In this document: piece by piece, positions 4,344 to 21,677 of the stretch | How the letters are laid out: each line of letters begins with the position of its first letter | Position numbering within the stretch: the stretch's first letter is position 1 | Assembly: GCA_038851755.1 (NCBI GenBank) | Contig: JAWCKR010000015.1 | Location: forward strand, 1 to 35,025 | Origin: Candidatus Hadarchaeales archaeon | GTDB lineage: Archaea; Hadarchaeota; Hadarchaeia; Hadarchaeales; WYZ-LMO6 | Length of the DNA stretch: 35,025 nt | Direction of reading: 5' to 3' | Made by a program: the position numbers and the translations under genes | Notes under the pieces: generated by a model | What the model was told of the DNA's origin: nothing | What the model saw: only the letters and a program-made list of their open reading frames with translations | The model's database searches: none

Positions 4344-7300
4344 TCATTCAGAGCCCTCATCCTTCCTCCCCATCAGCTTCTTCAGCTTCTCTAGGGTCTC
4401 CCTGGCCTCGGGGGCCCTCGCCGTCTCCGTTCCCTCCCTCCTCTCGGGCAGGGGTCTGGCCTTCATTTTGGCTGCCAGCTCCTCGGGACGGACGTGTGGC
4501 TCCACGGGCTTGGCCACCCTGGCCAGCCTGGCGAGGACCTCGGCGGGCGGGGGTGCTCCCGGCGGGGCCCTGCCCGCCCTGAGGAGGGACTGGAGGGCCT
4601 CCTCGGGCGCCGGAATGGGTGAGGGCCTGATGGGTTTCACGGTGAGGGGCTCGGCCTTGGGGAGCTCCTCGAAGGCCGGGCGGGCGGGCTCCAGCTTCCT
4701 CAGGGGAACGGCCGGGACCACCTTCTCCGGCAGCTTCACCTTCGGGCGCACCAGGCTGGCCAGCGGGACCTTCGGGAGGATGGGGCGGAAGCGCCAGAGG
4801 TAGACGAAGTACCCGGCCGCCCCCACCGCCATCAGGCTCCCCGCCAGCAGGAGGAGCAGGAGGGGCGGCCAGGAGAAGGGCGGGGGCAAGCCCGGGGCCT
4901 TCCTTCCGTACAGGGCCAGGGCCCTCGGGTAGAAGGTGAGCTCGGTCGAGAACACCAGGGCACCTTCCTCCCTCCCTTCCAGCTTCAGGGGCGCCTCCCT
5001 CCAGCCCTCGCCGTCGAAGGCGAGGAGCCTGAGCCCTCCCTCCTTCACTCCTTTCTCCCTCATCCAGTCCTCCGAGACCTGGAGCTCCACCCTCGCTCCC
5101 TCCACCGTCCGGGAGGAGGTGCTGAGGCCCAGCAGGGCCCCTCCGTACACCCGCTCCAGGGAAGGCCAGAGGGCTCCCCTCACCTCCTCCCCCTTCACCT
5201 CCAGCAGGCCCAGCGAGACCACCCTCTGCTGCTCGCGGAAGACGATACCGACCTTCCTCACGAACCAGGAGGGCGGGTGGAAGACGAACTCCGCCTCTCC
5301 TCCCGAAGGCACGTTCTCCACCACCTCCCTCAGGGAGGGAGTGAGGGTGAGGAAGCTCCCCACCGCGAAGGAGGAGGGGAGGCCCGCCCCGTTCACCGCC
5401 CTCACCCTCCAGAAGTACCTCCCCTCCTCCAGTCCCTCGAGCTGGAGGGAGGAGGCACCGAGCTCCCTCGCCGTCGCCGGTGAGCCGAAGTCGGGATCGT
5501 TGTCCACCATCACCTCGTAGGTTATCCCGGAGAGGTCGGAAACGGGGGACCAGTACAGGCGGGGCTGGGTGGTCCCCACCATCTCACCCTCCCCGGGCGA
5601 GAGCAGGACGGGCACCGGTGGCGGTGTGAGGTCCACCCCGCAGGAGGCCTTGGCCCTGAGGGGTGCGGGCTCCGTGAGGTTGTCGTTGTCCCTGGCGACC
5701 GTGCAGAACTCGTAGAACCCTTCTCCCTCGGGGGCGGTGAAGCTCCAGGACCAGGACTCCCTCTCCGCCGCCGCGAACTCCCTCCACTCTCCCCATCTCG
5801 AGTTGTCGGCGGAGTGCCTGTACCAGAGGGTCAGGGACACCACGTATCCGTCGTTGTCCCAGGCGGTGGCGCTCACGACGAAGGGTAACGAGATCCTCCA
5901 GTACGGACGGAGCTCCTGCACGGAGGAGGAGGGCGGGAAGAGCAACAGGGCCTTCACCCTCAGGAGGAAGGAAGCGGCGTGCCTCCTTCCCTCCGCGTCC
6001 TCTCCCACCACCGCGAAGGAGTAGGAGCCCTCGGGCGTTCCCCTCCCCACGCTGAGGTTGAGGGAGGAAGTGAAGGGAGGCACGCCCTCCCTGACGGAGA
6101 ACTCCGCCAGCACAGTGGCGGGCAGGTTCTCCGCCTCCAGCGTCACGGGGAGGGCGTAACCTCCGGAGGGCTCCACCCTCACCTGCACGGTAAGGCTCCC
6201 TCCCTCCGTCACCTCTCCCAGGCTCGGGCTGACCGAGAGGCTGAAGTCCCTCGGTGGGGGCGGTGGTGGGGGTGGGGGCGGGGGAGGTGGCGGAGGCTGG
6301 GGAGTTTCCACCCTGCCCTGGCGGCCCTCCAGCGTGAACCAACCCGCACCGGCCCTGACCCAGATCTGGAACTCCTCCAGCCCCCTCCAGCCCGCTGGGA
6401 ACCCGGCCTGCACCGTCCACCCCTCTGCCTTCCTCCATCCAGCCTGCGTGAAGAGGGACGAACTCCATCCCTCCACCAGCCGCCAACGCGCCGCCTCGCT
6501 TCCCGCCGAACCTAACCATCCTTCTACCGCTGACCATGAGGCCTCCGCCCAAATCCAGTTCTGCCAGGCCTCCGCCGCGGTCCAGAGGCCTCTGGCCGAA
6601 ACCGTCTCCTGCCAGCTCTCCAGCACCCTCCAGCCCGGAGGTGTGACCGTTCCTTCCGTCCACCCCTCCAAGCTTTCCCACCCGGCAACTCCAGCCAGCG
6701 CGCCCGACCACTCCTCCAGCGCGGACCAAGCGAAGGGAACCGGGAGCGAGGACCACCAGGAGTCCGAAACCACCCAGCCAGCCACAGTCCATGTTCCTCC
6801 CAGCCAGCCCTCCAGGCCTTCCCACCCCGCCACCGTTGCCGTTCCTCCCGTCCAGGAATCGAGCCTGTACCACAGCATGGGGGCCTCCACCGCCGTCTGC
6901 CAGCTCTCGAGGGAGAACCAAGCCTCCCTGAGCGTCACGGTGAAGACCCCAGAAACGTTCTCGTTCCCGGCCCCGTCCACCACCTTCACCCTCCAGTAGT
7001 AGGTTCCGGCGGGGAGGAGGTTCTCGCAGGTGTGGTAATTCTCCCCTATTCCGGCCTTGTGGTAGGAGAAGGGTGGGGAGAAGGTGTTTTCGTTGTCCAC
7101 CGTCAGCTCGTAGGTCACCCCTGAGAGGTCCCCAACGCTCGTCCAGCGGAAGGTCAGGCCTACTCTTGAAACCGTGCTCCCGTTCTCCGGCTCCAGCAGA
7201 GAGGGGGCAGGCGGGGGAACGGGGTCGTAGCCGCAGGAGGTGTCCGGGACGGAGGGTGGAGACTCGTGGTTGCCCGAGTTGTCCCAGGCCCTGGAGTAGA

Positions 7301-10300
7301 ACTGGTAGTGGCCGGGACCGCTGGGGGGCTCGAAGTAGAAGGTGTAGGGCGGGGAGGTGAGGTAGTCGTAGAGGATCCAGGAGCCCCAGCTGGAGTTGTC
7401 GGGGGACCAGCGGAACCAGAGCTCCACGTTCTCCACGTGCCCGTCGGCGTCGGAGGCGGTGGCGGAGAGGGTGATGGGGGAGGTGCGGTACCAGTACTGG
7501 GGCAGGGACTGGAGCTGGGAGACCGGCGGGACCAGCAGCCTGAGGAGGAAGGCCCTTGACACGTTTTCATTGCCAGCCCAGTCCCTCGCCACCACCCTCC
7601 ACCAGTAGTTGTCCTGCGGCAGGACGTTCTCAGTCTCGTGCCAGTTCTCCTCTATTCCCCCCTTCACGTACACGGGGGAGGAGAAGGACGGGTCGCGGTG
7701 GACCTCCAGCCTGTAGGTGACCCTGTCGCTCTCCTCGTCCTGGGAGGTGAGCCAGCGGAAGGTGGGCCTTCCATCGGGCTCCTCCAGCAGGACCTCGTTC
7801 TCCGGGGAAACGGGGATGGGCTCGGTGGGGGGCGTCACATCGTACCCGACCGTGAACTGCCAGACCTCCGACCAGGGTGAGCTCTCCCCTCCCGCCTCCG
7901 CCCTGACCTTCCAGTAGTAGATGCCGTTCTCCAGCTCGGTCCCGAAGGTGTATTGGCTCATCGGCAGCAGGAATTCCAGCGGAGAGCCGAAGTTCTCATC
8001 CCCATCCACCCATAGGCGGTAGACCTCCGTACCTTCCACATCCGACCAGTCAAGGGTGGGAGTGTTGTCATTCAGCCAAGCATCGTTCTCGGGGGAGAGG
8101 AGGACGGGCGCACCCAGCGTAATCACCCTGCCCTGCCTGGAGTCCAGGAGGAACCAGCAGGCGGGTGCGGTGGCCCAGCCCGTCCATTCCTCCACTTCCC
8201 TCCATCCTTCCACCATCCCCAGGGAGACCTGCCACCCCTCCAGCTCCCTCCAGCTCGCTCCAGCTCCCACTAGGCAGGTCCAGGACTCGGCCCCGCTCCA
8301 CCCGGCAGCGGCCCGCAGCACCTCCACCCAGCCCTCGACCTCCCTCCAGAGCGCCGGAGCCAAACAGGTCACAGTCCAGGAATCAGTGGTGGACCAAGAA
8401 GCGGGGGTCAGAATCCCCCCTTCCCATCCCTCTACCTCCTCCCAACCCGCTCTTGTCTGCAGGCTACCCGTCCAGCCCTCCATCTCCCACCAGCTGACCC
8501 CAGCCTGTACCTTCCCTGCCCAGGAGTCGAGCCATGACCACTGGACGGGAGTGCTCACCGCTCCCGTCCAGCTCTCGACCTGCTGCCAGCTGGAGGGCGC
8601 CTGAACCGAGCAGGACCAGTCCTCTACCGGCCGCCAGGAGGCCGGACCCAGGAACACTCCCGTCCAGGAATCCAGCTGCTGCCAGCTGACCGGGGAGGAA
8701 ACCGTAACGCTGCTGGAGTCGAGGGACTGCCAAGAAACTAGGGGCAAGGCCGTTCCCATCAAGGAATCGAGGAGCCTCCAGGCAGAGGGCACCTGGACCT
8801 GACACTGCCAGACCTCCACGGGTTGCCACCCGGCCATCGTCCGGACCGTTCCCTCCCAGGCCTCGACCGCTCTCCATCCAACGAGGGTTGAGAGGGTCCC
8901 TGTCCAGCTTTCTAGCCCGTACCAGGAGATGGGCGTTGAGACCACGCCTGCCCATCCCTCCACCGGCTGCCAAGCGATGAGGGTCTGGGCCGCGGCCGTG
9001 CAGGAATCCAGCTCCCGCCAGCTGGTGATCACGCCGAGCGAACCCGTCCAAGCTTCGACGGAGCACCAGGCCACGGCCGTTCCGAAAGCCCCCGTCCATC
9101 CTTCCAGTGGGGACCATCCTGCTGGGGTCAACATGGCCTCCGCCCAGGCTTCCACCGGCCGCCATTCGGCTGATGCAGAGACCGTGCTCATCCGGGACTC
9201 CAGTTCCTGCCACCCTGCCTGGGCTCTGGCACCGCCGGTCATGAAATCCAGCGACAGCCAGAAAGCCACCGTTCCCGCCGTCACGCTCCAGCTTTCTGTC
9301 CCGAACCAGCACACCGTCGTCGAGGCCGTGCAGCTCCAGAACTCCTGCTGTTGCCAGGAGACCCATGTCTCGAGGCTCGAGGTCCAGCCCTCTAGGGACT
9401 GCCAGGAGACGGGCGTGAAGAGCTCACCCGTCCAACCCTCTATCGGTTGCCAGGTGGCCACGGCCCCTATCGCTCCCGTCCAGGAGTCAGCCGTCCGCCA
9501 AACCACCTGCATCCCCAGCCCTGCTGCCCAAGCCTCGGCCTCAAACCAGTGAGCCTCAGTCCCAACCGTCTCCATCCAGGTCTCGATCGTCCGCCACTCT
9601 ACGGTGGTCACCATCGTTCCGGTCCACCCTTCGACCTCCCTCCAGGAAACGGAAGCTCCGGCGGCTCCCGCCCAGCCCTCGACCGCGGACCACTGGGCGG
9701 AGGTTGCGATCTCCAGCGTCCAGAACTCGGCGGCCGACCACCCTGCGGGTGCCCCTGCCGTGCACATCCAGGCTTCGACCACCGACCACACCGCCGCCGC
9801 ACCGGCAGCCCCGCTCCAGCCCTCCAGAGGAGACCATCCCACCCGCGCCCATGCCTCGTCCGCCCAGCCCTCGAGGACCGACCAGCCCACGGCCGCCGCA
9901 GCCGTTGCCACCCAGCCCTCAACCCCCACCCAGGCCTGGACCGTGCCGGCCGAGGAGGACCAGGAGTCGAGGGATTCCCATCCCGCCACGTTGAAGTAGT
10001 TCTCCGACCAGGGACCGGTATTCCCCACCCCGTCAAGGGCCCACACCCTCCAGCGATAGGTTCCGGGCTCGAGCACGACCGTGACCTGGTTCTCCGTCAC
10101 CGAGTTCTCGTAAACGGGTGAGTCGCCGGCGTACACCTTTACCTGGTACCCCGCCACCCCTGAGCCTCCATCCGTCGCGGAAGACCACTTGAGGGTGACC
10201 AACCCCGCCTGGACATAGGAGTCATTCTCCGGGAAGAGGAGCTGCACCGCGCTTGGTGAGACGTTATCCACCCTGAAGTTCTGGGTGGAGCAGTTCTCAC

Positions 10301-13300
10301 CCAGGTTCCCCGCGTTGTCCCTCGCGCAGACCCTCCAGTAGAAGTTCTTGCCTTCGAGGTTCAGGGCCTCCAGCAGCTCTGGGGTGGTCCACCAGTTCTC
10401 CTGGACCCAGCCCGAGTCGTACACGTTGTAGAGTTCAGGATCGAAGGTGGAGCTCTCGCACACCCAGACCCGGTACAGAACGGGTTTGGAGTTCTCCTCC
10501 ACGGCCTGCCAGGTGAGGGTTGGGGTGATAGAGGTCCAGGCTCCTCCTACGGGGGAGAGCGGCACGGGTGCGGATGGCCTCACCGTATCCACCCTGAAGC
10601 TCCAGATCTGGCTCCAGGTGAGGCTGAGGTTGCCTGCGTTGTCCCTGGCCTTCACCCTCCAGTAGTAGACGCCGTCCTGCAGCGCGTTCTCGAGAGGAAG
10701 TTCAAACACGTTGTCGAGAACCCAGCCGAAGCTGAAGAGGTAGGGCTCGCTCAGCGTGGGCTCGTCGTCGATCTGGATCCAGTAACCCACGGGAAGGGAG
10801 TTCTCTGGGACGGAGTACCACCTGAAGGTGGGAGTGTTATCGTTCAGGTTCTCACCGTTCGCCGGCGATAGGAGGGTGGGAGCGGACGGCCTGACCGTGT
10901 CCACCCTGAAGGTCCAGACCTCGGACCAGGGAGAGTTCTCTCCTCCCCTGAACAACCTCACCCTCCAGTAGTACAGGTTGTCCTGGAGTTGGTTCTCCAG
11001 CTCGTGGGAGGTGACCGTGAGGCCGGTCTTCCAGTAGATCACGGGCTCGGAGAAGGTGGGCTCGTTGTCCACCTGGAGCTCGAAGTTGTCGGCGGGGGCC
11101 TGGTTCTCCCAGCTCAGGGTGGGGGTGGTGTCGTTGGTGTTGGTCCCGGAGGGCGGGGAGAGGAGGGTGGGCGCTAGCAGCGGGGCGGAGAGGACGGAGG
11201 CCCAGGCCTCAAGCTGGGTCCAGAGAACCACGGCGGACCCGGTACCCATCCAGCCCTCCAGGAGCTCCCATCGCGCCGGGGAGGAGAGTGAGAGGGACCA
11301 GGTTTCGAGGGGCCTCCACAGTGCGGAGGCCGTGAGCATCACCGTCCAGGTTTCGGCCGCCCTCCAGAGGGCCCGGGCACTCGCCGTCCCCACCCACGTC
11401 TCCACACACCACCAGGAAGCGTACGTCTGGAGGGTTACCACCCAGGCTTCAACTGTCCACCAGCTTGCGGCGGCCAGGACACCTCCCGTGCAGGAGTCCA
11501 GCTCCCTCCAGCCCGCGGAGGCCCAGGCACCTCCAGTCCAGCCTTCCATCCAGCACCAGGAGGCCCGGGCCTCGGCGACCAACGTCCATTTCTCCACCTC
11601 CTCCCAGAGGGAGGGCGCGACAGTGGTAACGGTCCAGCTCTCCTGCACTGACCACAAGGCCGGGGCCTGACTTCTGGCCATCCAGCCCTCCACCTGGGAC
11701 CAAGAGGCCAAGGTCACCACGTATCCCTCCCAGGTCTCTATTCCTCCCCATCCGGCCGGTGCCTGAGAAACAACGCTCCACCCTTCCAGGAGGGACCAAG
11801 TTGCGGAGGACTGAACCTCCCCAGCCCAGCCCTCCACCTCCCTCCATCCGGCCCTCGCTCCGGCCAGGAGGGACCAGGACTCCATCATGGACCAGAACGC
11901 CACGGTCTCCAGCGCTCCCGCGAGGGTATCCAGGGGCTGCCAGGATCCCAAGGCCTGAAGCGCCACGGTAAGGGTATCCAGGACCCACCAGCCGGCCGGC
12001 GAGTGCGCACTGCCCTCCCAGGTCTCGAGCGCCACCCAGGAGGCTGGAGCCGGGAAGACACACATCCAGGTCTCGAGCGCCACCCAGGAGGCGGGTGACT
12101 GGTCCGTCCACCACCATCCCTCCAGGGCTGACCAGCCAGCGAGCGTGCTCACCCCTTCCTCCCATCCCTCCAGAGCTGACCAGAGGACGGAGGTCCGCAG
12201 TTCCGTAACCCAGGCCTCCATCGGCTCCCATCCCGCCACCGCCTCCAGAGTGGTGCTCCAGCCTTCGGTCGCCCTCCAGAGGGCCTGTGCCTCCACCGTG
12301 CCCGACCAGGAATCCGCAGCGCTCCAACCCGCCGGGGACTGGAGGGTGCAGACCCAGACTTCGGCGGGTGACCAGGAAGCCGGACCACCGACGACCGCCG
12401 CGAAGGATTCCAGGGACTCCCACCGCGCCGTGGCCCGCACCCCCTCCGCCCAGCCATCCAGGGCCTGCCATCCCGCGGAGGTCCTTGCCTCTCCTGACCA
12501 CTCCTCCAGAGACCACCAACCTACCGGAACCAAAACTGACACCGATGCCGAATCCAAGATCCGCCACTCGACCTGGGAGGCCAGAGAGCAAGCCCACCCC
12601 TCCACTCCCCGCCACTCGGCCACGGAGCTCAAGCCCACGCTCCACCCCTCCAGGGCTGACCAGACCGCGGGAGAACCCGCCAGGCTTGCCCACGCCTCCA
12701 CCACCCTCCACTCCGCCGCTGCTCCGGCCGAGGAGGCCCAGAGGTCCACCTCCTGCCAGACGGGGGTGGAAGTCCCACCCGCCATCCGGGAGTCGAGCCA
12801 CCGCCACTCCACGAGCGTACCCATCTCACCCGAGAACTCCTCCAGCGCGAACCATCCCGCCACCATCCCCACGCCTTCCGTCCACTGCTCCAGCTCTCTC
12901 CACCAGGCCGAAGCCTGGACCCCGGACATCCAGGAATCAAGCGTTATCCAGCCCGAGGGGAGGGTGAAGGCTCCCGCCCCCCAGCCCTCCAGCTCCCTCC
13001 ACACCGCCACCACGTTGACCGTCCTGGTCTCCGAGACGTTCTCACCCGCGGCGTTCACGGCCCAGACCCTCCAGTAGTAGGTCCCGTAGTCCTGGAAGAC
13101 CGTGGAGTACCAGTTGTCGTCCGGGGGAGACCTCCAGACGTTCTCCACCGGGGAGGAGAAGTCGGGGTCGTTGTCTATCTCTATGCGGTGGTTATCAGCG
13201 GTGGAGCCCCTGATCCAGGTGAAGGTGACCTCCAGGGGGACGTTCTCGCCATCCGCCGGGGAGAGGAGGGAGGGGGCCCCAGGCGGTCCCGTCACGACCG

Positions 13301-16300
13301 TGAAGGTCCTGACCACGGAACAGTTCTCCCCGAAGGCGTTGAGGGCCCAGACCCTCCAGTAGTAGGTGGCAGGAGCGTAACCGGGCGAGGGCTTGGTCCA
13401 GCTCCTGGTGGCGGCGGGGAAGAGCAGGTTGTCCAGGGGGGAGGAGAAGTCGGAATCGTTGTCCACCTCGAGCCTGAAGTTCTCCAGCGGGCTGGTGTTG
13501 TCCCACTGGAAGGTGGGGGTGGGAGTGGTGAAGGCGTTGTTCTCCGGGAGGAGGGGGGCGGGCGAGGAGGGCATGCACCCCAGGTTCTCCTCCCATCCCT
13601 CCACCACCCTCCACTCGGCGGTGGAGCTGAGGGAGGCCCACCGATCTTCCAGCGGGTGCCAGCTGGAGGGGGCTGGGAGGATCGCCCACCAGACTTCCTG
13701 GACCCGCCAGAGAACCTGGGCCTGTGCGGTTTCAGTCCAGGCTTCAACCTCCCTCCAGAGGACCAGAACCTGTACAGTCGCCCAGTAGCTGTCGATTTCC
13801 CGCCAGCTTGCCGAGGTCCCGAGAAGGGTGGTGAAGGTCTCGACCACCCACCACCAGGCCGTGGCCACGATTTGCTCGGTCCAAGAGTCGAGCGGACACC
13901 ATTCGGCCTGGACCCGAACCGTCCAGGTCCAGGAGTCCACCCGCGACCACTGAATGGAAACCGTGACCTCAACCGTGAAAACATCGAGGGCAAGCCACTG
14001 GGCTGGCCCTCCTATCTCCCCTGCAAGGGAATCAAGGAACAGCCAGAGGGCCTGAGTCTCGAGCATTCCCATCCAAGTATCGAGGTACTGCCAGCCCGCC
14101 TGTGCCTGCACACTTCCGGCCCAAGTCTCAATCAACCGCCAAGAAGCGGGGGTCTGAAGGGTATCCGCCCAATCCTCGAGGATCCACCATGAGGCGCGTG
14201 CGAGGACCACACAGGTCCAAGATTCTAGTGCCATCCATTCAGCCTGTGTTTGAACCGCTCCCATCCAGGAATCCAGCCTGGTCCAAGCCACGGGCGGAGA
14301 AACCTCTACCGTCCAGGCCTCAAGCTTCTGCCAGGAGGCCTGTGTAGAGACCGCACACATCCAGGAATCCGTAGGCTGCCAGGAGGCCTGCGCCCGAGCA
14401 CTCACCGTCCAACTTTCGACGGTCCTCCAGAGTGCTACAGTCCCCGCGCCCCCAGTGCAAGTGTCCAACTCCTCCCAAGCCCCCGCGGTCCAAGCACTTC
14501 CATCCCAGCTCTCGACCGCCCTCCACCCGGCCGTGGTAAGGGCCTCTCCCGTCCAAGTATCCACCGCCGACCAAACGGCCGTGGTCTGGAGTTCCCCCAT
14601 CCAGCTTTCCAGCACTCGCCAGACACAAACCACGGTGAAGTACCAGACGTTTTCCGAGACGTTCTCCCCGGCGGCGTTCACGGCCCAGACCCTCCAGCGG
14701 TAGGTCCCGGGCGCGTATCCTCCCGACTTCACCCAGCTGTTCTCCCCCACCACCCAGACGTTGTCCACGCAGCCGTTGGTCCAGTCCTCGTCGTTGTCCA
14801 CCTCGATCCTGTGGTTCTCGGCGTTCGCCCCGTTCTCCCACTCGAAGGTCACATCTTCGTAGGCGGGAAAGATCGAGTTGTTCTCGGGCCTGTAGAGCTT
14901 GGGACTCCCCGGAAGAAGCTGGGTCTGGATGCTCTCCGTCCAACTCTCCAGGAACAGCCAAACCGCCACAGTCTGGACGGCCTCACCCCAGCCTTCCACG
15001 ATCTGCCAAGAACCGGCGGCGCGAACCACGATGGTCCAGCTCTCAACCATTACCCACAGAGTGGTCGGCTGGATGTTCTCCACCCAGCCCTCGAGGATTT
15101 GCCAGGAAGCTGTGGTTCCTACCCCTCCAGCACAGGAGTCCAACTCTCTCCAGCTCACGAAGGTCAGGATCTCGCCTGTAAACGTTTCAAGGGACCTCCA
15201 GGCACCCAGGGACTGCACCGTGCTTGTCCAAGCTTCCAGGTGCTGCCAGCTCACCGGGGAACCAACGCTGTCAACCCAGCCCTCGACCATGTACCACGCA
15301 ACTGCGATTTGGAGGCTTCCTGCCCAAGTGTCAAGAACCTGCCAGAAAGCTCCTGTCAGGATTCCCTGCATCCAGGCATCGAGAGGCTGCCAAGCGACCC
15401 TCCCTTCCACCGTCCAAGTCCAAACTTCAAGTGGCTGCCAGCTCACCCCACCCTCCGCGACCACGCTCCACGCGTCGACTGGCTGCCAAGAGGCCTGGGT
15501 CTGGAGCTCCGTCGTCCAGGCATCGAGAGTTTGCCAGGAGATTGCGGTCCAAACCACTCCGGACCAGCTTTCCAGGGCCCGCCAGCCTGCCTGAGCCAGC
15601 AGCTCCACCGACCAGTTTTCCAGGGCCCGCCAGTGGGCTGGAGCCGAAACTTTCCCCGTCCACTCCTCCACAGGAAGCCAAGAAGAAGGCGCTCCAACGG
15701 TGGAGGCCCAGCTCTCCTGCATCTGCCATGCCGCCGTGGTTCCCAGAACCTCGGTCCACTGCTCGAGACTCGCCCAGCTCCCTCTACCCTCCACCCTCAC
15801 AGCCCATTCCTCGATCGACCGCCATGAGGCCTGGAAGTGGAGCGCGCTTTCCCAGACCTCGAGGGTCCACCAGCTTACTGACACGGACATGGCGCCCATC
15901 CACTCGTCCACCGTCCACCAGTTCCCAGGCGCACGCAGGGTCTCGGACCAAACCTCCATCGTCTGCCAACCGACCTGTACCACACCTGCGCCTGTCCACG
16001 TCTCGAGCGACCTCCAGCTGGCCCCTCCCTCCAAGACCTCCGTCCAAGTCTCAAGCTCCGCCCAGGAAATTTTGGTTGGAAGGACGCAGGACCATGAGTC
16101 AAGGAAGGACCAACCCGCTACCGGGGAAGAAACCCCCCCGAGCCAGGATTCCAGCCAGAACCAGTCAGAGGGGGGGATGGAGAGGTTCTCCGTCCAGGAG
16201 TCCAGAACTCTCCAGGTACAGATCCTGAGGACCCTCGAAGGGGAGGAATTCTCGTTCCCCGCGTAGTCGACGGCGCCCACCCTCCAGGTGTGCTCCCCGA

Positions 16301-19300
16301 GCGAGAAGGTGTGGGAGTAGGAGGTGACGGTGTTGTCCACCTCCACTAGCCCTTCGTCCACGTAGATTCGATAGTTGTCCACGCCCGTCAGAGCATCCGT
16401 CGAAGGGTTCCATTTGAGCTCCACCTGAGCTTCGGAGAGGTCCAGGTAAGTGTTGTTCTCCGGGGACACGAGAGGGGGGGCGGTGGGTGGATGGGTATCC
16501 ACCGTGAACTTCCAGACGTTGTCCGACCAGTTCTCATAGCCCGCACCCGTGGCCGCAACCTTCCAGTAGTAGACGTTGTCAGGGAGCTGGTTCTCTATCT
16601 CCAGAGAGGTCAGGGCCGGTGGGATGTTCGAATTATCGTAGACGTTCTCCGAAAAATTGGAATAGGGGCTGATCACCAGCCTGTAACCGGTGTGGTTGTC
16701 GGATGCCGTCCAGGCAAAGGCTGGGGTGTTGTCGTTGAGGTTTTCGTTGTTTTTTGGAGAAGCCAGCTGGGGGCGCCCTGGACCGTAGACCACCACCCTG
16801 CAGAAGTCCACCATGAGGCTCGTCTGGATGGAGTCGTTGTCCCTCTGGATGTATCTCGCATAGACGTTCCCGCCGGAGAGGTAGCTGGTTCCCGTAAGGT
16901 TGTAGCTGAAGAAAAGGGGGCTCCCGGCACTCCCCCCTACCTGCAGGTTCCCCAAGTTGTCCCACTGGCCCGTCGAGAAGTTGTAGAGGTAAAGCGAGAT
17001 GGGTTCAGAGTCCCCCGCCGTGTAGTACTTTATTTCTAGGATGTGGCCCGTGCCGCTGGGTATGTCCGTTATGTCGTGCCGGACATCCACACGATAGGCC
17101 TTGGGGATTTCCCTCCACTCCGCGAAGAGCCTGTGGACGTGGGCCGTGCTTCCGGCTCCCTCCTGATAGAGAACTATTCCCTCCCCTGGCAGGAGGAGGA
17201 GCGGTCCCGTGATCTCGAACGTGAGCAGCCGAACGCCCGTTATCTGTGGGGTCAGAGCAGCGCCTGCGGCTCCCGGGGAGGTGACCGAAACCAGCCTGCT
17301 CGTCGCTTCGCCCACAGGAATGACCGTGGCATTACCATACCTGGCCACCAGAGCGGGAGCGGGTGCATCCGTGTGTTTCCTTGGAACGTTGTCGGGGGGA
17401 ATAGAGGTCGCACCCGTGGCTGACGATATCCTCCGCACCGTTATCGGAACATAAGTGGCTGTGGTAGTGGCAACCACCATCACCATCATCTTCTTGATTA
17501 CCGCAACGTTGTTGGAATCCGCTGGATTGAAGAAGGAGGCGAAGTTGTCACCTGCGGTGGCGGTACCAGTCACCGGGCCTATGGAGAGCACGTAGTCCCT
17601 CTCGGCGGAGGGAGCGGTGGTCGTTTCTGCCCATTCTACTAGGAGTATCACCCTATGACCTGTGTTCCCCGTCCCGGACTCCTGGTAGAGGGCTATTCCT
17701 TCCCCGGGTTTCAGGACGAGGGGCTCATTGGGCACGAACACGAGGCTCTGCCACCCGTGCTGCTGTCCCACCGCCCCCTCCGAGGTTATTCCCAGAATCC
17801 GGCTTTCCGTGGCACCCGCAAAAGTGACCGTGGGGCCTGTGTGTCTGATGTCCATCGCGGTGTCCGTGGACCCTGTGTGCTTCTTGGGGACGTTCGCGGC
17901 GGCTATCTGGGTCCCACCGCTGGCTGCCGTGATTCTCCTAACGCTCATCGGGATGTAGGTCGCTGCCGCTGCCGCCGAGACCCTCGCCTCAATCCTCTTG
18001 ACAATCGCGTACTTCCCAGACCCAGCGGGATTGAGGATTGAAGCGTAGGTATAGGGCATGGTGGTTGAGCCATTTATGGGCCCTATCGAAAGGAGGTATT
18101 CTCCTTTCGGGGAGGGTGCGGTGGACACCTCGGCCCACTCTATGTAGGCCGAGAAGTGGTGGTCGATATCTCCCGCCGCTTCGGAGTAGAACGCTATCCC
18201 CTCTCCTGGCTGAAGAATCAGCTTTTCATCGTCCCCACCAAATACTATCTCCCTGTTGACGTACTGTCCTGCCGCACCAGGGGTAACCACGCTCAACAGC
18301 CTGGAGTCGGCCGTGCCGCTCCAGGTGAAACCGGGGGTGACCCCCAGGTTGTACCTGAGGTCCATCGCGGTGTCCGGGGATCCCGTGTGCTTCTTGGGGA
18401 CGTTCGCGGCGGCTATGGCGGTCCCCGCGCTGGGGGCGCCCGTGAACCTGCGCACCGTGAAGGGGATGTACAGTGCTGCGGCGTCGGCGATAATCCTCAC
18501 CCCAATCCTCTTCACAACTGCGGTTCTGCCAGAGCCGGATGGATTGTAGAACGAGTAATAGACATAGTTGGCTCCCGGCGCGGTGCCCAGCTCAACCCTG
18601 GGAAAGGCCAACAGGTACTCTCCCTGGGAAGAGGGAGTGAAAGTTTTCTCGTCCCACTCCACGGTCATGAAGATGAGATGATTGGAATCGCTCGCGGCCT
18701 CGTTGTACAACGCAACGCCCTCGCCGGGTTGCAGGATTATGGGTTCGTTCGGCTCAAAGATGAGTTCCTTCTTGGCATACTGTTGGTCTGCGGCTCCTGG
18801 CGAAATCACGAGCATCAGCCTAGAGTCGGCCGTGCCGCTCCAGGTGAAACCGGGGGCGGTTCCGAGGGCATGCCTGAGGTCCATCGCGGTGTCCGCGGAT
18901 CCCGTGTGCTTCTTGGGGACGTTCGCGGCGGCTATCTGGGTCCCCGCGGTGGGGGCGCCCGTGAACCTCCTGAGGGCAAAGTTTGAGGTGTATACTGCGC
19001 CACCATCGCAGTCTATGCTTATCCTGACCCTCCTGATGATGGCGGTCCTGCCCGAAGTCGAAGGATTGTAGAAGGAGTAGTGAACGTAGCCGGCGGCCCA
19101 GTTTGTCCCACTCCTCCTCGGGAAGGTCAGGATGTAGCCACCCATAGGTGTCGGCGCGGTGGGAACCTCCTTCCATTCGACCAGGAGGTAGATCCTGTGG
19201 TTGGTATTACCCGCCGTCTCCTGGTACAGGGCTATTCCCTCGCCTTCCCGCAGAACCAGGTTTTCCTGTTGGAACACCACTTCCTGGTGACCCTGATGGG

Positions 19301-21083
19301 TTCCGGCGGTAGCAGGCGAGACCACCGACATCAGCCTCGAGTCGGCCGTTCCGGCCCAAGTCACGCTGATGCCCGGACCGTACCGTATACTCATCGCCGT
19401 GTCGGGTGCTCTGGAATCCTTCTTGGGAACGCTCGAGGCCTGGATGACCGTGCCCCCGCCGGTAACGTTTGTGATTCTCCTCAGGGTAAAATTCACCCTG
19501 CTGGCGGCTCCCCCGGCATTGACCATTATCACGATCCTCCCGATCACCGCGGTTCTGCCGGAGCCAACGGGGTTGAAGAAGGAGGCGAACACATCATTCG
19601 CCGTGGCGGTTCCTGACACCGGACCGATAGTGAGCAGGTAGGAGTTCTCTACCCCAGGTGTTCCGCTATCGCTCTCGTAGAGGTTTTCATAGACGCCATC
19701 ATCGCTCTGGGCCCCTGAAAGCCCGCTCGTCCCACCCTCGTAAACTGTCTCTCCCTTCACGTAGACGATAGCGTAGACGGAGAAGCCCGAACTCCTGGCC
19801 CTGAAATGTAATGAGGCTCCATCCTCACCTTCCTTCCAGGTGGGAAGCTCCTCCCATTCCCTCTCGCCGTAGTGCCAGAGCGCCAGCCTGCCAGACCCTC
19901 TTCCCTCCAGCCAGCTCTTCGGGACGGAGAACCCTATCCCAGCCTCTTCAAGGAGTTCTCTCTGCAGGGAAGTGGAGAGATCGAGGTACGAGTAGACTTG
20001 AACCTCCCCCACGTAGACCGCCTCTTCTCCCGAGCCCACACGGTTGGCGGGAGGCACACCCTGCGGGGGGGAATCGAGGGCTTCCGCCGTTACCTCGAAA
20101 TCCCTCGCCTGTCCCCTCATCAAGAGCTCGATATACCTGACGGGGAGGTTTTCGAACCTCGCCAGCGCTCTTCTGTTCGCCCGGCCGAAGTTGGCCCTGG
20201 CCTTCCCGGAGACCCAACGGGCCCACCTCTCCCAGTTCTCCGTCCCAGCCTCCCATTCCTCCAGGGTAACCCAGCCCGAAGAGAGGTTCTCCCGTTGGAA
20301 ATCCTCCCCCACGTTCCAAGAGTCTAGAGGGTAGAAGGACCCGCCTGCCTGGTGGAGATCCTCCCCCACACTCCAAGAGTCAAGAAGAGAGAAAGACTCG
20401 CCCACCCCTCCACCGTCCTCTCCTAACTCCTCCCATCCCTGGGGAGGCTTGGCCCTGAGCCCGATTCCCCAAGCCTTCGGACCGGTCTCCCCGCTCAGCC
20501 CTGGGTCCTCGCTCCCCAACAGGACCCTGACCTGGAGGTACCGGAAGGGAGGGAGAAAGGAGAGGTCGGCGGGAGGTGAGGTGAAGAGGGTGCCGGGGGT
20601 ACCGTCGGGACCCATCCACTCGCTCCAGCTCTCCCCGTCGGTGCTCACCCTCACCTGCAGGTCCACCCAGGAGCGAAGGACCTGTGGCTCCAAGCCCGCA
20701 GCACCCTCCCCTGACGGTTGGTGACCTCCCGTATCCTCCCCAAGCAGGTTTTCTGGAGTTCCCTCCAGCTCCGGCTCCACCCACCCTTCACCCGTCTGAA
20801 CTACCAGGGAAGGCTCTTCCCTCTCCCACCACAGCTCCCATTCACCCTCCCCGAGTTCGATGATCTCGGAGACGAAGGAACCCCGCGTGTAACCCGGAAG
20901 GAGCCTGATGACCCCTCCCGCGTTCTCCGTGTTCTCGAACAGCGGGTAGGGGGAGGTCTCCTCCTGAGCCCTCACGGGAACGAAAGGCACCTGCGAGGAG
21001 AGGAGGAGGAGAGAAAGGAGGAGGGAAAAGGCCCTCCGGAGCCCGAGGGAGAGGCGGGTGAGGCGAGAGGGACCTTTCTCCAT
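4344..21083 (-). CDS. Giant 5579-aa membrane-anchored surface protein with Trp-rich 16-aa repeats, Ig/FN3-like domains and two PGF-pre-PGF-like domains
   Basis: Uninterrupted ORF with SD GGAGGAGTGAGAGG-ATG and an N-terminal signal peptide. PGF-pre-PGF-like domain at ~19765-20200 (FSVPKSW...GFSVYAI); five ~170-aa repeats; many P.L.SP.N...YYWRV.A modules; poly-Pro at ~6253-6297; second PGF-pre-PGF-like domain at ~4910-5320; TM helix at ~4795-4865; basic Pro-rich cytoplasmic tail. Confidence 0.95.
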   Translation of the reverse strand: MEKGPSRLTRLSLGLRRAFSLLLSLLLLSSQVPFVPVRAQEETSPYPLFENTENAGGVIRLLPGYTRGSFVSEIIELGEGEWELWWEREEPSLVVQTGEGWVEPELEGTPENLLGEDTGGHQPSGEGAAGLEPQVLRSWVDLQVRVSTDGESWSEWMGPDGTPGTLFTSPPADLSFLPPFRYLQVRVLLGSEDPGLSGETGPKAWGIGLRAKPPQGWEELGEDGGGVGESFSLLDSWSVGEDLHQAGGSFYPLDSWNVGEDFQRENLSSGWVTLEEWEAGTENWERWARWVSGKARANFGRANRRALARFENLPVRYIELLMRGQARDFEVTAEALDSPPQGVPPANRVGSGEEAVYVGEVQVYSYLDLSTSLQRELLEEAGIGFSVPKSWLEGRGSGRLALWHYGEREWEELPTWKEGEDGASLHFRARSSGFSVYAIVYVKGETVYEGGTSGLSGAQSDDGVYENLYESDSGTPGVENSYLLTIGPVSGTATANDVFASFFNPVGSGRTAVIGRIVIMVNAGGAASRVNFTLRRITNVTGGGTVIQASSVPKKDSRAPDTAMSIRYGPGISVTWAGTADSRLMSVVSPATAGTHQGHQEVVFQQENLVLREGEGIALYQETAGNTNHRIYLLVEWKEVPTAPTPMGGYILTFPRRSGTNWAAGYVHYSFYNPSTSGRTAIIRRVRISIDCDGGAVYTSNFALRRFTGAPTAGTQIAAANVPKKHTGSADTAMDLRHALGTAPGFTWSGTADSRLMLVISPGAADQQYAKKELIFEPNEPIILQPGEGVALYNEAASDSNHLIFMTVEWDEKTFTPSSQGEYLLAFPRVELGTAPGANYVYYSFYNPSGSGRTAVVKRIGVRIIADAAALYIPFTVRRFTGAPSAGTAIAAANVPKKHTGSPDTAMDLRYNLGVTPGFTWSGTADSRLLSVVTPGAAGQYVNREIVFGGDDEKLILQPGEGIAFYSEAAGDIDHHFSAYIEWAEVSTAPSPKGEYLLSIGPINGSTTMPYTYASILNPAGSGKYAIVKRIEARVSAAAAATYIPMSVRRITAASGGTQIAAANVPKKHTGSTDTAMDIRHTGPTVTFAGATESRILGITSEGAVGQQHGWQSLVFVPNEPLVLKPGEGIALYQESGTGNTGHRVILLVEWAETTTAPSAERDYVLSIGPVTGTATAGDNFASFFNPADSNNVAVIKKMMVMVVATTTATYVPITVRRISSATGATSIPPDNVPRKHTDAPAPALVARYGNATVIPVGEATSRLVSVTSPGAAGAALTPQITGVRLLTFEITGPLLLLPGEGIVLYQEGAGSTAHVHRLFAEWREIPKAYRVDVRHDITDIPSGTGHILEIKYYTAGDSEPISLYLYNFSTGQWDNLGNLQVGGSAGSPLFFSYNLTGTSYLSGGNVYARYIQRDNDSIQTSLMVDFCRVVVYGPGRPQLASPKNNENLNDNTPAFAWTASDNHTGYRLVISPYSNFSENVYDNSNIPPALTSLEIENQLPDNVYYWKVAATGAGYENWSDNVWKFTVDTHPPTAPPLVSPENNTYLDLSEAQVELKWNPSTDALTGVDNYRIYVDEGLVEVDNTVTSYSHTFSLGEHTWRVGAVDYAGNENSSPSRVLRICTWRVLDSWTENLSIPPSDWFWLESWLGGVSSPVAGWSFLDSWSCVLPTKISWAELETWTEVLEGGASWRSLETWTGAGVVQVGWQTMEVWSETLRAPGNWWTVDEWMGAMSVSVSWWTLEVWESALHFQASWRSIEEWAVRVEGRGSWASLEQWTEVLGTTAAWQMQESWASTVGAPSSWLPVEEWTGKVSAPAHWRALENWSVELLAQAGWRALESWSGVVWTAISWQTLDAWTTELQTQASWQPVDAWSVVAEGGVSWQPLEVWTWTVEGRVAWQPLDAWMQGILTGAFWQVLDTWAGSLQIAVAWYMVEGWVDSVGSPVSWQHLEAWTSTVQSLGAWRSLETFTGEILTFVSWRELDSCAGGVGTTASWQILEGWVENIQPTTLWVMVESWTIVVRAAGSWQIVEGWGEAVQTVAVWLFLESWTESIQTQLLPGSPKLYRPENNSIFPAYEDVTFEWENGANAENHRIEVDNDEDWTNGCVDNVWVVGENSWVKSGGYAPGTYRWRVWAVNAAGENVSENVWYFTVVCVWRVLESWMGELQTTAVWSAVDTWTGEALTTAGWRAVESWDGSAWTAGAWEELDTCTGGAGTVALWRTVESWTVSARAQASWQPTDSWMCAVSTQASWQKLEAWTVEVSPPVAWTRLDSWMGAVQTQAEWMALESWTCVVLARASWWILEDWADTLQTPASWRLIETWAGSVQAQAGWQYLDTWMGMLETQALWLFLDSLAGEIGGPAQWLALDVFTVEVTVSIQWSRVDSWTWTVRVQAEWCPLDSWTEQIVATAWWWVVETFTTLLGTSASWREIDSYWATVQVLVLWREVEAWTETAQAQVLWRVQEVWWAILPAPSSWHPLEDRWASLSSTAEWRVVEGWEENLGCMPSSPAPLLPENNAFTTPTPTFQWDNTSPLENFRLEVDNDSDFSSPLDNLLFPAATRSWTKPSPGYAPATYYWRVWALNAFGENCSVVRTFTVVTGPPGAPSLLSPADGENVPLEVTFTWIRGSTADNHRIEIDNDPDFSSPVENVWRSPPDDNWYSTVFQDYGTYYWRVWAVNAAGENVSETRTVNVVAVWRELEGWGAGAFTLPSGWITLDSWMSGVQASAWWRELEQWTEGVGMVAGWFALEEFSGEMGTLVEWRWLDSRMAGGTSTPVWQEVDLWASSAGAAAEWRVVEAWASLAGSPAVWSALEGWSVGLSSVAEWRGVEGWACSLASQVEWRILDSASVSVLVPVGWWSLEEWSGEARTSAGWQALDGWAEGVRATARWESLESFAAVVGGPASWSPAEVWVCTLQSPAGWSAADSWSGTVEAQALWRATEGWSTTLEAVAGWEPMEAWVTELRTSVLWSALEGWEEGVSTLAGWSALEGWWWTDQSPASWVALETWMCVFPAPASWVALETWEGSAHSPAGWWVLDTLTVALQALGSWQPLDTLAGALETVAFWSMMESWSLLAGARAGWREVEGWAGEVQSSATWSLLEGWSVVSQAPAGWGGIETWEGYVVTLASWSQVEGWMARSQAPALWSVQESWTVTTVAPSLWEEVEKWTLVAEARASWCWMEGWTGGAWASAGWRELDSCTGGVLAAASWWTVEAWVVTLQTYASWWCVETWVGTASARALWRAAETWTVMLTASALWRPLETWSLSLSSPARWELLEGWMGTGSAVVLWTQLEAWASVLSAPLLAPTLLSPPSGTNTNDTTPTLSWENQAPADNFELQVDNEPTFSEPVIYWKTGLTVTSHELENQLQDNLYYWRVRLFRGGENSPWSEVWTFRVDTVRPSAPTLLSPANGENLNDNTPTFRWYSVPENSLPVGYWIQIDDEPTLSEPYLFSFGWVLDNVFELPLENALQDGVYYWRVKARDNAGNLSLTWSQIWSFRVDTVRPSAPVPLSPVGGAWTSITPTLTWQAVEENSKPVLYRVWVCESSTFDPELYNVYDSGWVQENWWTTPELLEALNLEGKNFYWRVCARDNAGNLGENCSTQNFRVDNVSPSAVQLLFPENDSYVQAGLVTLKWSSATDGGSGVAGYQVKVYAGDSPVYENSVTENQVTVVLEPGTYRWRVWALDGVGNTGPWSENYFNVAGWESLDSWSSSAGTVQAWVGVEGWVATAAAAVGWSVLEGWADEAWARVGWSPLEGWSGAAGAAAVWSVVEAWMCTAGAPAGWSAAEFWTLEIATSAQWSAVEGWAGAAGASVSWREVEGWTGTMVTTVEWRTIETWMETVGTEAHWFEAEAWAAGLGMQVVWRTADSWTGAIGAVATWQPIEGWTGELFTPVSWQSLEGWTSSLETWVSWQQQEFWSCTASTTVCWFGTESWSVTAGTVAFWLSLDFMTGGARAQAGWQELESRMSTVSASAEWRPVEAWAEAMLTPAGWSPLEGWTGAFGTAVAWCSVEAWTGSLGVITSWRELDSCTAAAQTLIAWQPVEGWAGVVSTPISWYGLESWTGTLSTLVGWRAVEAWEGTVRTMAGWQPVEVWQCQVQVPSAWRLLDSLMGTALPLVSWQSLDSSSVTVSSPVSWQQLDSWTGVFLGPASWRPVEDWSCSVQAPSSWQQVESWTGAVSTPVQWSWLDSWAGKVQAGVSWWEMEGWTGSLQTRAGWEEVEGWEGGILTPASWSTTDSWTVTCLAPALWREVEGWVEVLRAAAGWSGAESWTCLVGAGASWRELEGWQVSLGMVEGWREVEEWTGWATAPACWFLLDSRQGRVITLGAPVLLSPENDAWLNDNTPTLDWSDVEGTEVYRLWVDGDENFGSPLEFLLPMSQYTFGTELENGIYYWKVRAEAGGESSPWSEVWQFTVGYDVTPPTEPIPVSPENEVLLEEPDGRPTFRWLTSQDEESDRVTYRLEVHRDPSFSSPVYVKGGIEENWHETENVLPQDNYWWRVVARDWAGNENVSRAFLLRLLVPPVSQLQSLPQYWYRTSPITLSATASDADGHVENVELWFRWSPDNSSWGSWILYDYLTSPPYTFYFEPPSGPGHYQFYSRAWDNSGNHESPPSVPDTSCGYDPVPPPAPSLLEPENGSTVSRVGLTFRWTSVGDLSGVTYELTVDNENTFSPPFSYHKAGIGENYHTCENLLPAGTYYWRVKVVDGAGNENVSGVFTVTLREAWFSLESWQTAVEAPMLWYRLDSWTGGTATVAGWEGLEGWLGGTWTVAGWVVSDSWWSSLPVPFAWSALEEWSGALAGVAGWESLEGWTEGTVTPPGWRVLESWQETVSARGLWTAAEAWQNWIWAEASWSAVEGWLGSAGSEAARWRLVEGWSSSLFTQAGWRKAEGWTVQAGFPAGWRGLEEFQIWVRAGAGWFTLEGRQGRVETPQPPPPPPPPPPPPPPPRDFSLSVSPSLGEVTEGGSLTVQVRVEPSGGYALPVTLEAENLPATVLAEFSVREGVPPFTSSLNLSVGRGTPEGSYSFAVVGEDAEGRRHAASFLLRVKALLLFPPSSSVQELRPYWRISLPFVVSATAWDNDGYVVSLTLWYRHSADNSRWGEWREFAAAERESWSWSFTAPEGEGFYEFCTVARDNDNLTEPAPLRAKASCGVDLTPPPVPVLLSPGEGEMVGTTQPRLYWSPVSDLSGITYEVMVDNDPDFGSPATARELGASSLQLEGLEEGRYFWRVRAVNGAGLPSSFAVGSFLTLTPSLREVVENVPSGGEAEFVFHPPSWFVRKVGIVFREQQRVVSLGLLEVKGEEVRGALWPSLERVYGGALLGLSTSSRTVEGARVELQVSEDWMREKGVKEGGLRLLAFDGEGWREAPLKLEGREEGALVFSTELTFYPRALALYGRKAPGLPPPFSWPPLLLLLLAGSLMAVGAAGYFVYLWRFRPILPKVPLASLVRPKVKLPEKVVPAVPLRKLEPARPAFEELPKAEPLTVKPIRPSPIPAPEEALQSLLRAGRAPPGAPPPAEVLARLARVAKPVEPHVRPEELAAKMKARPLPERREGTETARAPEARETLEKLKKLMGRKDEGSE
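6305..16217 (-). repeat. Five tracts of 48-nt/16-aa coding repeats W-x2-[LV]-[ED]-[SGTA]-W-x9
   Basis: Counted by eye: ~14920-16217 (27 units), ~13570-14621 (22), ~11180-13001 (38). Estimated from length: ~8120-9981 (~39), ~6305-6920 (~13). Tracts are separated by Ig-like modules. Confidence 0.92.
17110..19641 (-). repeat. Five tandem ~170-aa domains in the giant protein
   Basis: Each reads Y[LIV]L..P...S[FI].NP..S...A[VI]...RR...[NS]VP[KR]K...SRL...L..GEG..[LF]Y.E...W.E. Near-identical DNA blocks at ~17851, ~18361 and ~18880. Confidence 0.9.
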
Positions 21084-21468: not shown

Positions 21469-21645
21469 TTTCGCCCTTTTGCGAAAGATTGAAGAAGATG
21501 AACCTTTTAACCCCGGACTTAAGCCTTTTCGCTTTTCTGCGAAACCTTTTTTACGAAGGGGTCCCAGCGGGGCGGGAAACTCCCTAATTTTTCCCACCTT
21601 ACGCCCTTTTGCGAAACCCTCCCCCCTTTTCGCCTTTCACCGAAA
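21469..21645. promoter_or_regulatory. Four 18-bp palindromic operators TTTCGC-N6-GCGAAA
   Basis: 21469-21486 and 21527-21544 are perfect; 21599-21616 (TTACGC) and 21628-21645 (CCGAAA) each have one mismatch. They sit between divergent wHTH genes. Confidence 0.88.
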
Positions 21646-21677
21646 CCCTTTTCCCCTTCCCCCCCCTTCCCCTGAGG

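Follow-up and report, generated by a model that had tools for sequence, protein, structure and literature searches.

The window analysed here is a complete 35-kb contig (35,025 nucleotides; JAWCKR010000015.1, our contig C15) from the genome of a Candidatus Hadarchaeales archaeon (assembly GCA_038851755.1, here G000), which comprises 1.25 Mb in 26 contigs and is 93% complete. Its largest feature is a single uninterrupted open reading frame (ORF) on the reverse strand (4344-21083) encoding a protein of 5,579 amino acids (aa), P0001. Between residues 1624 and 4930 this protein carries five tracts of a tryptophan-rich unit that recurs in a 16-residue register, 139 units in all (Table 1). The gene is 16.7 kb long and is not alone: a second repeat ORF of 9.5 kb (3,169 aa), with a domain plan that matches that of P0001, lies on contig C12 (3499-13005), and together the two occupy about 2% of the genome. 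In addition, contig C22 carries a 786-aa ORF in which a weak repeat match is combined with a strong PGF-pre-PGF domain.

The sequence rule of the repeat, W-x3-E-x-W-x-G, is unusually simple and strict. A preliminary description of the window, made from the sequence alone, had placed about 140 copies of the unit in five tracts between 6305 and 16217 in near-strict register, and both the position and the count hold: 135 of the 139 units are exactly 16 residues long and the register slips only at four 17-residue steps (1624>1641, 1641>1658, 2695>2712 and 4850>4867). The first tryptophan (W1) is present in every unit, position 5 is acidic in every unit (Glu in 100, Asp in 39), and the second tryptophan (W7) is present in 116. 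Position 4 is Leu or Val in 110 of the 139 units, position 11 is Val, Leu, Ala or Ile in 121, and position 15 is Ala or Val in 107. Gly is the commonest residue at position 9 (51 units) and Pro at position 14 (39 units); Pro also occurs at position 3 in 18 units and Gly at position 6 in 35. Overall, positions 4, 6, 11, 13 and 15 are small or aliphatic, and they alternate with positions that admit charged or polar side chains (2, 3, 9, 10, 12 and 14).

This regularity is far from what composition alone produces. The motif that the preliminary description had picked out, W-x2-[LV]-[ED]-x-W, occurs 89 times in its strict form (W..[LV][ED].W), against a mean of 0.54 (maximum 4) in 1000 shuffles of the whole protein and a mean of 0.75 (maximum 5) when the tracts alone are shuffled. 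There are 234 pairs of tryptophans exactly 16 residues apart, where the median for lags 1-99 is 17. Outside the motif, the units are indeed as divergent and as poor in Asn and Lys as was first noticed. Mean pairwise identity between units is 30% at the protein level and 47% at the DNA level (DNA maximum 75%), and the units contain 12.9% Trp, 0.3% Asn and 0.3% Lys, as opposed to 3.2%, 4.8% and 2.1% in the rest of P0001; Tyr and His likewise make up 0.3% each. The tracts, with 2,228 residues, contain only 2 N-x-S/T sequons, as compared with 30 in the remaining 3,351 residues of P0001, and they are net acidic, with 250 Asp+Glu versus 82 Lys+Arg.

An assembly artefact, which had been thought unlikely from the divergence of the units, is excluded, because a congener (G002) holds a collinear ortholog of the gene on a 460-kb contig, with the same flanking genes, and because contigs from public sequencing runs lie across the tracts. 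The stretch is found in public sequencing runs (15 rows from 6 studies, all labelled hot-springs metagenomes); three of these contain at least half of the sampled words, the best of them being possibly the source sample and then not independent. No RNA run is listed among them, and two runs labelled metatranscriptomic are flagged "probably DNA". Contigs from four runs belonging to three studies give depth in all 30 of 30 bins of the window, and some of them cross the tracts, such as record 4 of X1 (12558-16824, 4 differences) and record 31 of X5 (14915-17879, 12 differences).

The G002 ortholog is 84% identical over 4,600 aligned residues, in a comparison that covers residues 826-5579 of P0001, the compared locus having ended before the first 825. 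Identity is 98% in T1, 95% in T2, 88% in T3 and 84% in T5 but falls to 48% in T4, and the neighbouring spacer 3 (9981-11174) is 61% identical. The preliminary description had taken the survival of hundreds of TGG codons as a sign of purifying selection. The units contain 288 TGG codons. W1 is kept in 137 of 137 units aligned with the ortholog, and the ratio of non-synonymous to synonymous substitution rates (dN/dS) is 0.27-0.46 in the tracts, so that purifying selection on them is supported by the sequence comparison; most spacers are similar, at 0.19-0.27, and spacer 3 stands apart at 0.74. Between the congeners T4 has diverged to nearly the identity of random unit pairs (30%), yet W1, E5 and W7 persist. 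Together, T4 and spacer 3 look like a replaced or fast-evolving cassette. An indel relative to G002 at residue 3851 is exactly 16 residues long, that is, one unit.

Table 1. Features of P0001 and of genes at higher coordinates in the window
Feature	Window position	P0001 residues	Strand	Basis or remark
Signal-peptide-like N-terminus (basic start, Leu-rich core, VRA/QEE)	20964..21083	about 1-40	-	read by eye from translation
PGF-pre-PGF domain	19764..20006	about 361-440	-	TIGR04213 48.1 bits, cut-off 28; 51.7 bits in genome search
Five tandem ~170-aa domains	16884..19676	about 470-1400	-	recurring anchor motifs
Tract T1, 27 units W-x2-[LV]-[ED]-x-W	14913-16214	1624-2057	-	translation in 16-residue register
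Spacer 1, one FN3/Ig-like module with Y-x-W-R-V motif	14622..14912	2058-2154	-	anchor at residue 2128
Tract T2, 22 units	13566-14621	2155-2506	-	translation in 16-residue register
Spacer 2, two FN3/Ig-like modules	13002..13565	2507-2694	-	YYWRV anchors 2574, 2669
Tract T3, 38 units	11175-13001	2695-3303	-	translation in 16-residue register
Spacer 3, FN3/Big_13-like modules	9981..11174	3304-3701	-	motif anchors 3371, 3473, 3676
Tract T4, 39 units, hypervariable between congeners	8109-9980	3702-4325	-	
Spacer 4, FN3 / DUF4962-like / Big_7-like modules	6921..8108	4326-4721	-	anchors 4389, 4493, 4695
Tract T5, 13 units	6294-6920	4722-4930	-	translation in 16-residue register
15-proline run directly after T5	6252..6296	4930-4944	-	translation
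Second, weaker PGF-pre-PGF-like domain	4935..5117		-	TIGR04213 19-24 bits, below cut-off
Hydrophobic TM-like segment	4794..4871	5405-5430	-	read by eye from translation
148-aa tail rich in P/A/E/L/R/K, presumably cytoplasmic	4347..4790		-	composition
Winged-helix regulator-like gene, divergent from the giant gene	21609..22325		+	Pfam HTH_24 / HTH_36 / RepL
Membrane protein, one TM segment, N-terminal zinc-ribbon-like CxxC pair	23422-24231		+	paralog of 24712-25371
Small peptidase S24/S26-like gene after first membrane protein	24069-24689		+	Pfam Peptidase_S24, 23.9 bits
Membrane protein, one TM segment	24712-25371		+	paralog of 23422-24231
Small peptidase-like gene after second membrane protein	25376-25795		+	no Pfam match; similar to first peptidase

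The tracts are embedded in a long multidomain protein, in which they alternate with spacers that resemble immunoglobulin (Ig) and fibronectin type III (FN3) modules. The five tandem domains ahead of T1 are recognised by VP[KR]K[HD] anchors at residues 552, 722, 895, 1065 and 1233, about 170 residues apart, and by recurring F[FY]NP and PGEG[IV] motifs; no Pfam or NCBIfam family matches them, and they appear to be a second uncatalogued module within P0001. On the C-terminal third of the protein, Pfam identifies Big_13 (64.5 bits) and fn3 (31.9 bits), and in spacer 4 DUF4962 (30.0 bits) and Big_7 (23.3 bits). Further Ig-like modules lie between the proline run and the second PGF-pre-PGF domain.

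P0001 shares with archaeal PGF-pre-PGF surface glycoproteins a TIGR04213 domain above cut-off, a putative signal peptide and a C-terminal membrane segment, and one relative of the repeat is itself so named. It differs from them in that a 148-aa tail extends past the transmembrane (TM) segment instead of a PGF-CTERM-type ending, and the tryptophan repeat lies outside the definition of that family. Nor does the genome (93% complete) contain a match to archaeosortase (PF09721), which is detected in the control, M. jannaschii; we therefore take the TM helix itself as the probable anchor. Among shorter relatives, P0008 combines its repeats with an Ig domain, a TM segment and a tail, in P0080 about 6 units lie between a signal peptide and a TM segment, and in P0094 the repeats directly abut the TM segment. 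On the strength of this architecture and of the repeat-to-TM layout of the minimal relatives, we read P0001 as an archaeal membrane-anchored cell-surface protein forming a giant fibre.

The preliminary description did not recognise the repeat family, and neither do the databases. A copy of Pfam-A current to 2025 contains no match to the repeat at E<=0.01 with the whole of P0001, and none at E<=10 with T2, T3, T4 or part of T4. No NCBIfam family matches the tracts, a profile search of the PDB returned no significant match (the best, at E=0.063 and 15.7 bits, lies in the CROP repeats of a clostridial toxin), and an ESM Atlas search with T4 reached unnamed clusters that gave no lead (best score 0.84). 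One family, DUF3499 (PF12005), matches only the near-perfect repeats of another genome and not the window tracts, and we treat it as a chance match amplified by repetition. In the literature on archaeal tryptophan-rich or 16-residue repeats, on Hadarchaeota surface proteins and on PGF-pre-PGF, we found no description of the repeat; the main texts of two papers on Hadarchaeota cultures (PMC11297162, PMC10811742) do not contain "S-layer", "adhes*" or "surface protein", and their supplements may list such genes.

To follow the family beyond the window, we searched 1.84 billion representative proteins with a profile of 31 four-unit blocks. This gave 187 matches at E<=0.001, of which 113 also pass E<=1e-10 and 56 pass E<=1e-30. 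The strong relatives that bear a name are hypothetical proteins of "Candidatus Hadarchaeales archaeon" or "Hadesarchaea archaeon", one of them annotated "PGF-pre-PGF domain-containing protein", and genomes with these names are classed together with G000 in a single order. Of 61 relative genomes, 33 carry the repeat (E<=0.001), as do 35 of the 66 genomes of the phylum (E<=1e-5), among them 18 of the 26 high-quality ones. A scan of 185,579 species genomes confirmed 22 loci, all named Hadesarchaea, Hadarchaeota or Hadarchaeum; it used narrow consensus patterns and thus bounds consensus-type units only. Viral contigs contained no relative. By these comparisons the repeat appears essentially absent outside the phylum Hadarchaeota, and we rate it as a new, uncatalogued family within a known general kind, the aromatic beta-repeat rods of surface proteins.

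In some genera the units are nearly identical and follow a clean consensus, W-Q-L-I-E-T-W-T-G-T-V-E-A-P-A-A. In one genus (P0005, locus L015, G050:C166) the units are near-perfect copies of this consensus, 35 or more in a row, which points to recent homogenisation or expansion. In G002, three giant open frames of 3,170, 7,944 and 5,638 aa, all matching the repeat, lie within about 50 kb (C1, about 84000-137000). Weaker matches (P0083, P0088, P0094, P0047 and P0075) are other 16-17-residue W...W-x-G repeats that keep W1, W7 and G9 and carry a sequon per unit, for example W-x5-W-N-G-[ST]-L-Y or W-N-G-[ST]-L-Y-N-[ST]-S. Their sources are labelled as Thermoplasmata or Actinobacteria metagenome-assembled genomes, and one weak match is an arthropod protein; such repeats may be either homologous or convergent to the Hadarchaeales repeat.

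G000 also contains two above-cut-off matches to the alpha subunit of methyl/alkyl-coenzyme M reductase (MCR_alpha; C20:175-549 and C12:35868-36239). MCR_alpha occurs in 5 of the 66 phylum genomes, four of which carry the repeat, the fifth (G048) being 79% complete. We rejected a specific link between the repeat and alkane metabolism, because 31 repeat-positive genomes lack MCR.

How might such a unit fold? Across the family, 1,791 units measure 15, 16, 17 or 18 residues (65, 1380, 285 and 61 units, respectively), in a count for which W1 and [ED]5 served as anchors by construction. All follow one consensus at positions 1-13, and length changes only after position 13; the unit can thus be described as a fixed 13-residue core followed by a loop of 2-5 residues. 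If residues 1-7 and 10-15 are strands, then positions 4, 6, 11, 13 and 15 would point to one face and W1, position 3, E5 and W7 to the other. We ran AlphaFold2 on two in-register alignments of natural tracts. A T4 segment (25 rows) gave irregular long strands at a mean predicted local distance difference test (pLDDT) score of 48.5, and a consensus-like tract from another Hadarchaeales genome (22 rows) scored 50.7. Both models contain strands only and no helix. Between residues 96 and 188 the second shows six 13-residue strands, each followed by a 3-residue break at unit positions 13-15. Among the structures that Foldseek lists nearest to this model, none of them a significant match, most are parallel beta-helix or solenoid proteins (SRRP, FwdC, LbH acyltransferases, bactofilin, TPS domains, ice-binding proteins and FapC). 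A helical reading, in which P14 would be the N-cap, G9 the C-cap and W1-T8 an amphipathic helix, was rejected in view of Pro3 (18 of 139), Gly6 (35 of 139) and the all-beta predictions. We conclude that the tracts are probably all-beta arrays of a strand-turn-strand-loop unit, and their varied lengths and the one-unit indel between congeners speak for arrays that are open-ended.

To explain these results, we propose that the tracts are rod-forming stalk modules of a giant, membrane-anchored extracellular protein of this hot-spring Hadarchaeales archaeon, a reading to which, taken whole, we give a probability of about one half. The repeat, its conservation, its taxonomic range and the domain architecture of P0001 are shown by the data above, and from them we infer the topology, fold, dimensions and role that follow. 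Each unit would comprise a strand (W1-W7), a tight turn (T/S8-G9), a second strand (T10-A/T13) and a variable loop (P14-A15-x16), and units would stack into an open-ended all-beta rod. Our preferred fold is a two-sheet beta-solenoid in which each unit makes one coil, with a hairpin superhelix as the alternative; the solenoid by itself falls slightly short of an even chance, and what is left after the hairpin and trimer options discussed below goes to other folds. A thin core would be formed by the small hydrophobics at positions 4, 6, 11, 13 and 15, and W1, E5 and W7 would line up as unbroken Trp-Glu-Trp stripes along the opposite face. With a rise of 0.48 nm per coil, the total rod length would come to about 67 nm for the 139 units, and to roughly double if the units are hairpins. 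Five such rods, alternating with the Ig/FN3-like modules, would serve chiefly as rigid stalk or spacer segments that hold the N-terminal domains far from the cell, while the C-terminal helix would anchor the protein in the membrane.

A parallel for the coil is found in ice-nucleation proteins, surface-located proteins of Gram-negative bacteria in which dozens of 16-residue coils are predicted to form a two-sheet beta-solenoid with ladders of identical residues. The tandem period is the same (135 of 139 units in P0001 are exactly 16 residues long), but the ladders are of Thr, Ser and Tyr rather than W-E-W, and Pfam Ice_nucleation matched neither P0001 nor the tracts.

Several points weigh against the stalk reading. 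Both AlphaFold2 models are of low confidence, with no residue reaching a pLDDT of 70, and the best Foldseek match of the consensus-like model to the PDB is at E=0.26, with none at E<=0.001. Such sequence hints as there are favour hairpin repeats: the non-significant CROP match (E=0.063) and the distant relative P0094, which exceeds the cut-off of a beta-flower family, PF21785. Covariation does not help, since residue-class mutual information, taken within units and between units n and n+1 or n+2, never exceeds 0.035 bits and shows no hairpin-versus-solenoid pattern (840 units from 45 non-homogenised proteins). The signal peptide and the TM segment of P0001 were assigned by eye. Moreover, stacking 139 invariant acidic residues in register would carry a high electrostatic cost if their charges were not neutralised, and about 255 exposed tryptophans are unusual for a mere spacer and suggest that the stripe is an interface. 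The W-E-W stripe, which is probably exposed, the hypervariability of T4 and the acidity of the tracts are hard to explain by a spacer role alone. Of the ideas in the preliminary description, the beta-solenoid or ribbon stalk is the one towards which the structural evidence, weak as it is, leans: it agrees with all-beta models and beta-helix-like neighbours, at a pLDDT of about 50 and with no significant structural match. Its Trp ladders and acidic stripe would fit the position-wise composition, with W1, E5 and W7 on one face and small hydrophobics on the other.

Among the alternatives, a different fold for the same rods is the likeliest. Here the units would be beta-hairpin "petals" with their tips at positions 8-9, arranged as a hairpin superhelix or an antiparallel meander of the cell-wall-binding, MORN or beta-flower type. 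Two-residue hairpin turns of type I' are classically formed by N-G, and Gly9 is preceded by Thr or Ser in the window and by Asn in the distant relatives. P0094, a distant 16-mer relative, scores 49.2 bits on PF21785 (Bflower_2, the 5-fold beta-flower family) against a cut-off of 38. In the beta-flower paper (PMC10584680) the petals are hairpins whose tip reads [DNEQ]xxG, and relatives bear annotations as variants of cell-wall-binding or MORN repeats. Beta-flowers (PF21784-PF21786) resemble our repeat in their hairpin units, their tip Gly and the aromatics at their strand edges. Yet they are closed barrels of 8, 10 or 12 strands, with 4-6 petals and about 96 residues, as stated in the same paper (Durairaj et al., 2023), whereas the tracts of P0001 are arrays of 13-39 units with a single-unit indel. 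Closed 4-6-fold flowers are in fact excluded by the tract lengths (27, 22, 38, 39 and 13) together with that indel. In addition, the tracts match none of PF21784-PF21786, nor any other Pfam family, at E<=10, and the more regular AlphaFold2 model runs unbroken through positions 8-9 and has parallel beta-helices as neighbours, both of these being weak arguments. We consider hairpins possible, but on balance doubtful.

The second alternative leaves the protein and its class of beta-repeat unchanged and concerns what the rods do. The Trp-Glu-Trp stripe may serve as a multivalent surface for binding or docking that offers one site in each unit or pair of units, much as do the hairpin repeats by which Gram-positive surface proteins bind choline and glycans. 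Candidate ligands would be a polymer (a glycan or a partner's envelope polymer), a cationic group bound by an aromatic cage and a carboxylate, a surface that is mineral or hydrophobic, or the protein itself, as a further copy or another of its tracts. Conserved exposed aromatic and acidic residues are typical of sugar- or cation-binding sites, and in P0001 W1 and E/D5 are invariant (139 of 139 each) and W7 nearly so, on what would be the face opposite the small hydrophobics. The nearest hint in the PDB, at a non-significant E=0.063, is to CROP repeats of the cell-wall-binding type; the distant relatives carry a W-N-G tip motif, one of them matching the hairpin-petal family PF21785; and T4, hypervariable except at W1, E5 and W7, is what a diversifying surface on a fixed scaffold might look like. 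CW_binding_1 and CROP repeats are similar short tandem surface units, with two conserved aromatics and a Gly turn in long open-ended arrays, but they are bacterial, have units of about 20 aa and show no invariant acidic residue four positions after the first Trp, and their models matched neither P0001 (Pfam, E<=0.01) nor T2-T4 (E<=10). No binding-domain family matches the tracts, any ligand is putative, and nothing among the neighbouring genes indicates one. Trp and Glu could equally be structural keystones, through aromatic packing between units and Glu accepting an indole NH. This alternative, including self-association, is kept alive by the stripe, the hypervariability of T4 and the net acidity of the tracts, and we hold it as a tentative and rather unlikely option.

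It is much less probable that the tracts fold only as trimers, whether in a triple beta-spiral like that of adenovirus and reovirus fibre shafts or in a triple beta-helix, although this would explain the poor monomer models. The fibre-shaft repeat, about 15-16 residues long, resembles our 15-18-residue unit in its order of strand, Gly turn, strand and variable loop and in its fibrous role, and the monomer predictions are of low confidence. However, its hydrophobic and Gly positions do not map one-to-one on those of our unit, and it belongs to trimeric viral proteins, whereas no viral relatives of the repeat were found. Interleaved Ig/FN3 modules and a single C-terminal TM helix do not require trimers either. 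A prediction with three copies of eight consensus-like units (residues 1-128) returned "no answer" with a score of 0.00 in two runs, made without controls, and is neutral on oligomers.

Finally, a molecular ruler like a phage tape measure, an analogy drawn in the preliminary description and not supported here, or a charge-transfer conduit along the Trp ladder, which is pure speculation, has only the strict aromatic periodicity in its favour and is hardly credible: tape measures are helical and sit in a tail-gene module, whereas the tracts are predicted all-beta with no helix, P0001 looks secreted (signal peptide) and membrane-anchored (TM segment) outside any tail module, its gene has no phage context among its neighbours in the window, viral contigs hold no relatives, no redox cofactor sites or partner genes are seen, and 31 genomes carry the repeat but no MCR-type genes. 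A conduit would be interesting, given that the two culture papers (PMC11297162, PMC10811742) describe their Hadarchaeota as lacking multihaem cytochromes.

The genes around P0001 include archaeal-type ATPases as well as ParA-like, AAA_14/DUF4143, winged helix-turn-helix, membrane-protein, peptidase-like and Cdc6/Orc1 genes. The divergent winged-helix gene next to P0001 has a paralog, 46% identical, that adjoins the 3,169-aa repeat ORF in the equivalent position (G000:C12:2844-3455, reverse strand). A ParA-like gene also lies beside that ORF, and the pairing of a winged-helix gene with a repeat protein recurs in G002. Further along the window, the two paralogous membrane proteins and the two small peptidase-like genes form a compact cluster (23422-25795, forward strand), which is kept in G002 and may represent a signal peptidase paired with its substrate. 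Two stretches (26001-28000 and 30001-31000) have a G+C content of 44-48%, as compared with about 60-68% elsewhere, and carry AAA_14/DUF4143, DUF234 and ATPase_2 genes; both may stem from horizontal transfer.

Hadarchaeota occur widely in hot and in subsurface habitats, and their cell envelope and their contacts with surfaces or partners are almost undescribed. The repeat reported here is a well-defined piece of structural "dark matter", uncatalogued and not confidently modelled by AlphaFold2. It is well suited to structure determination and may also serve to mark the Hadarchaeales lineage among surface proteins. At its boldest, and as an unlikely but attractive extension, the tracts may represent a fibrous fold absent from structure and family databases, in which about 255 tryptophans and 139 carboxylates would line one exposed face of rods 70-130 nm long, and this face, rather than the rod, would be what functions, as a multivalent adhesive towards a polymer, a mineral, a hydrophobic substrate or a partner cell. 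If this were true, Hadarchaeota, with their small genomes, would spend about 2% of their DNA on sticky fibres.

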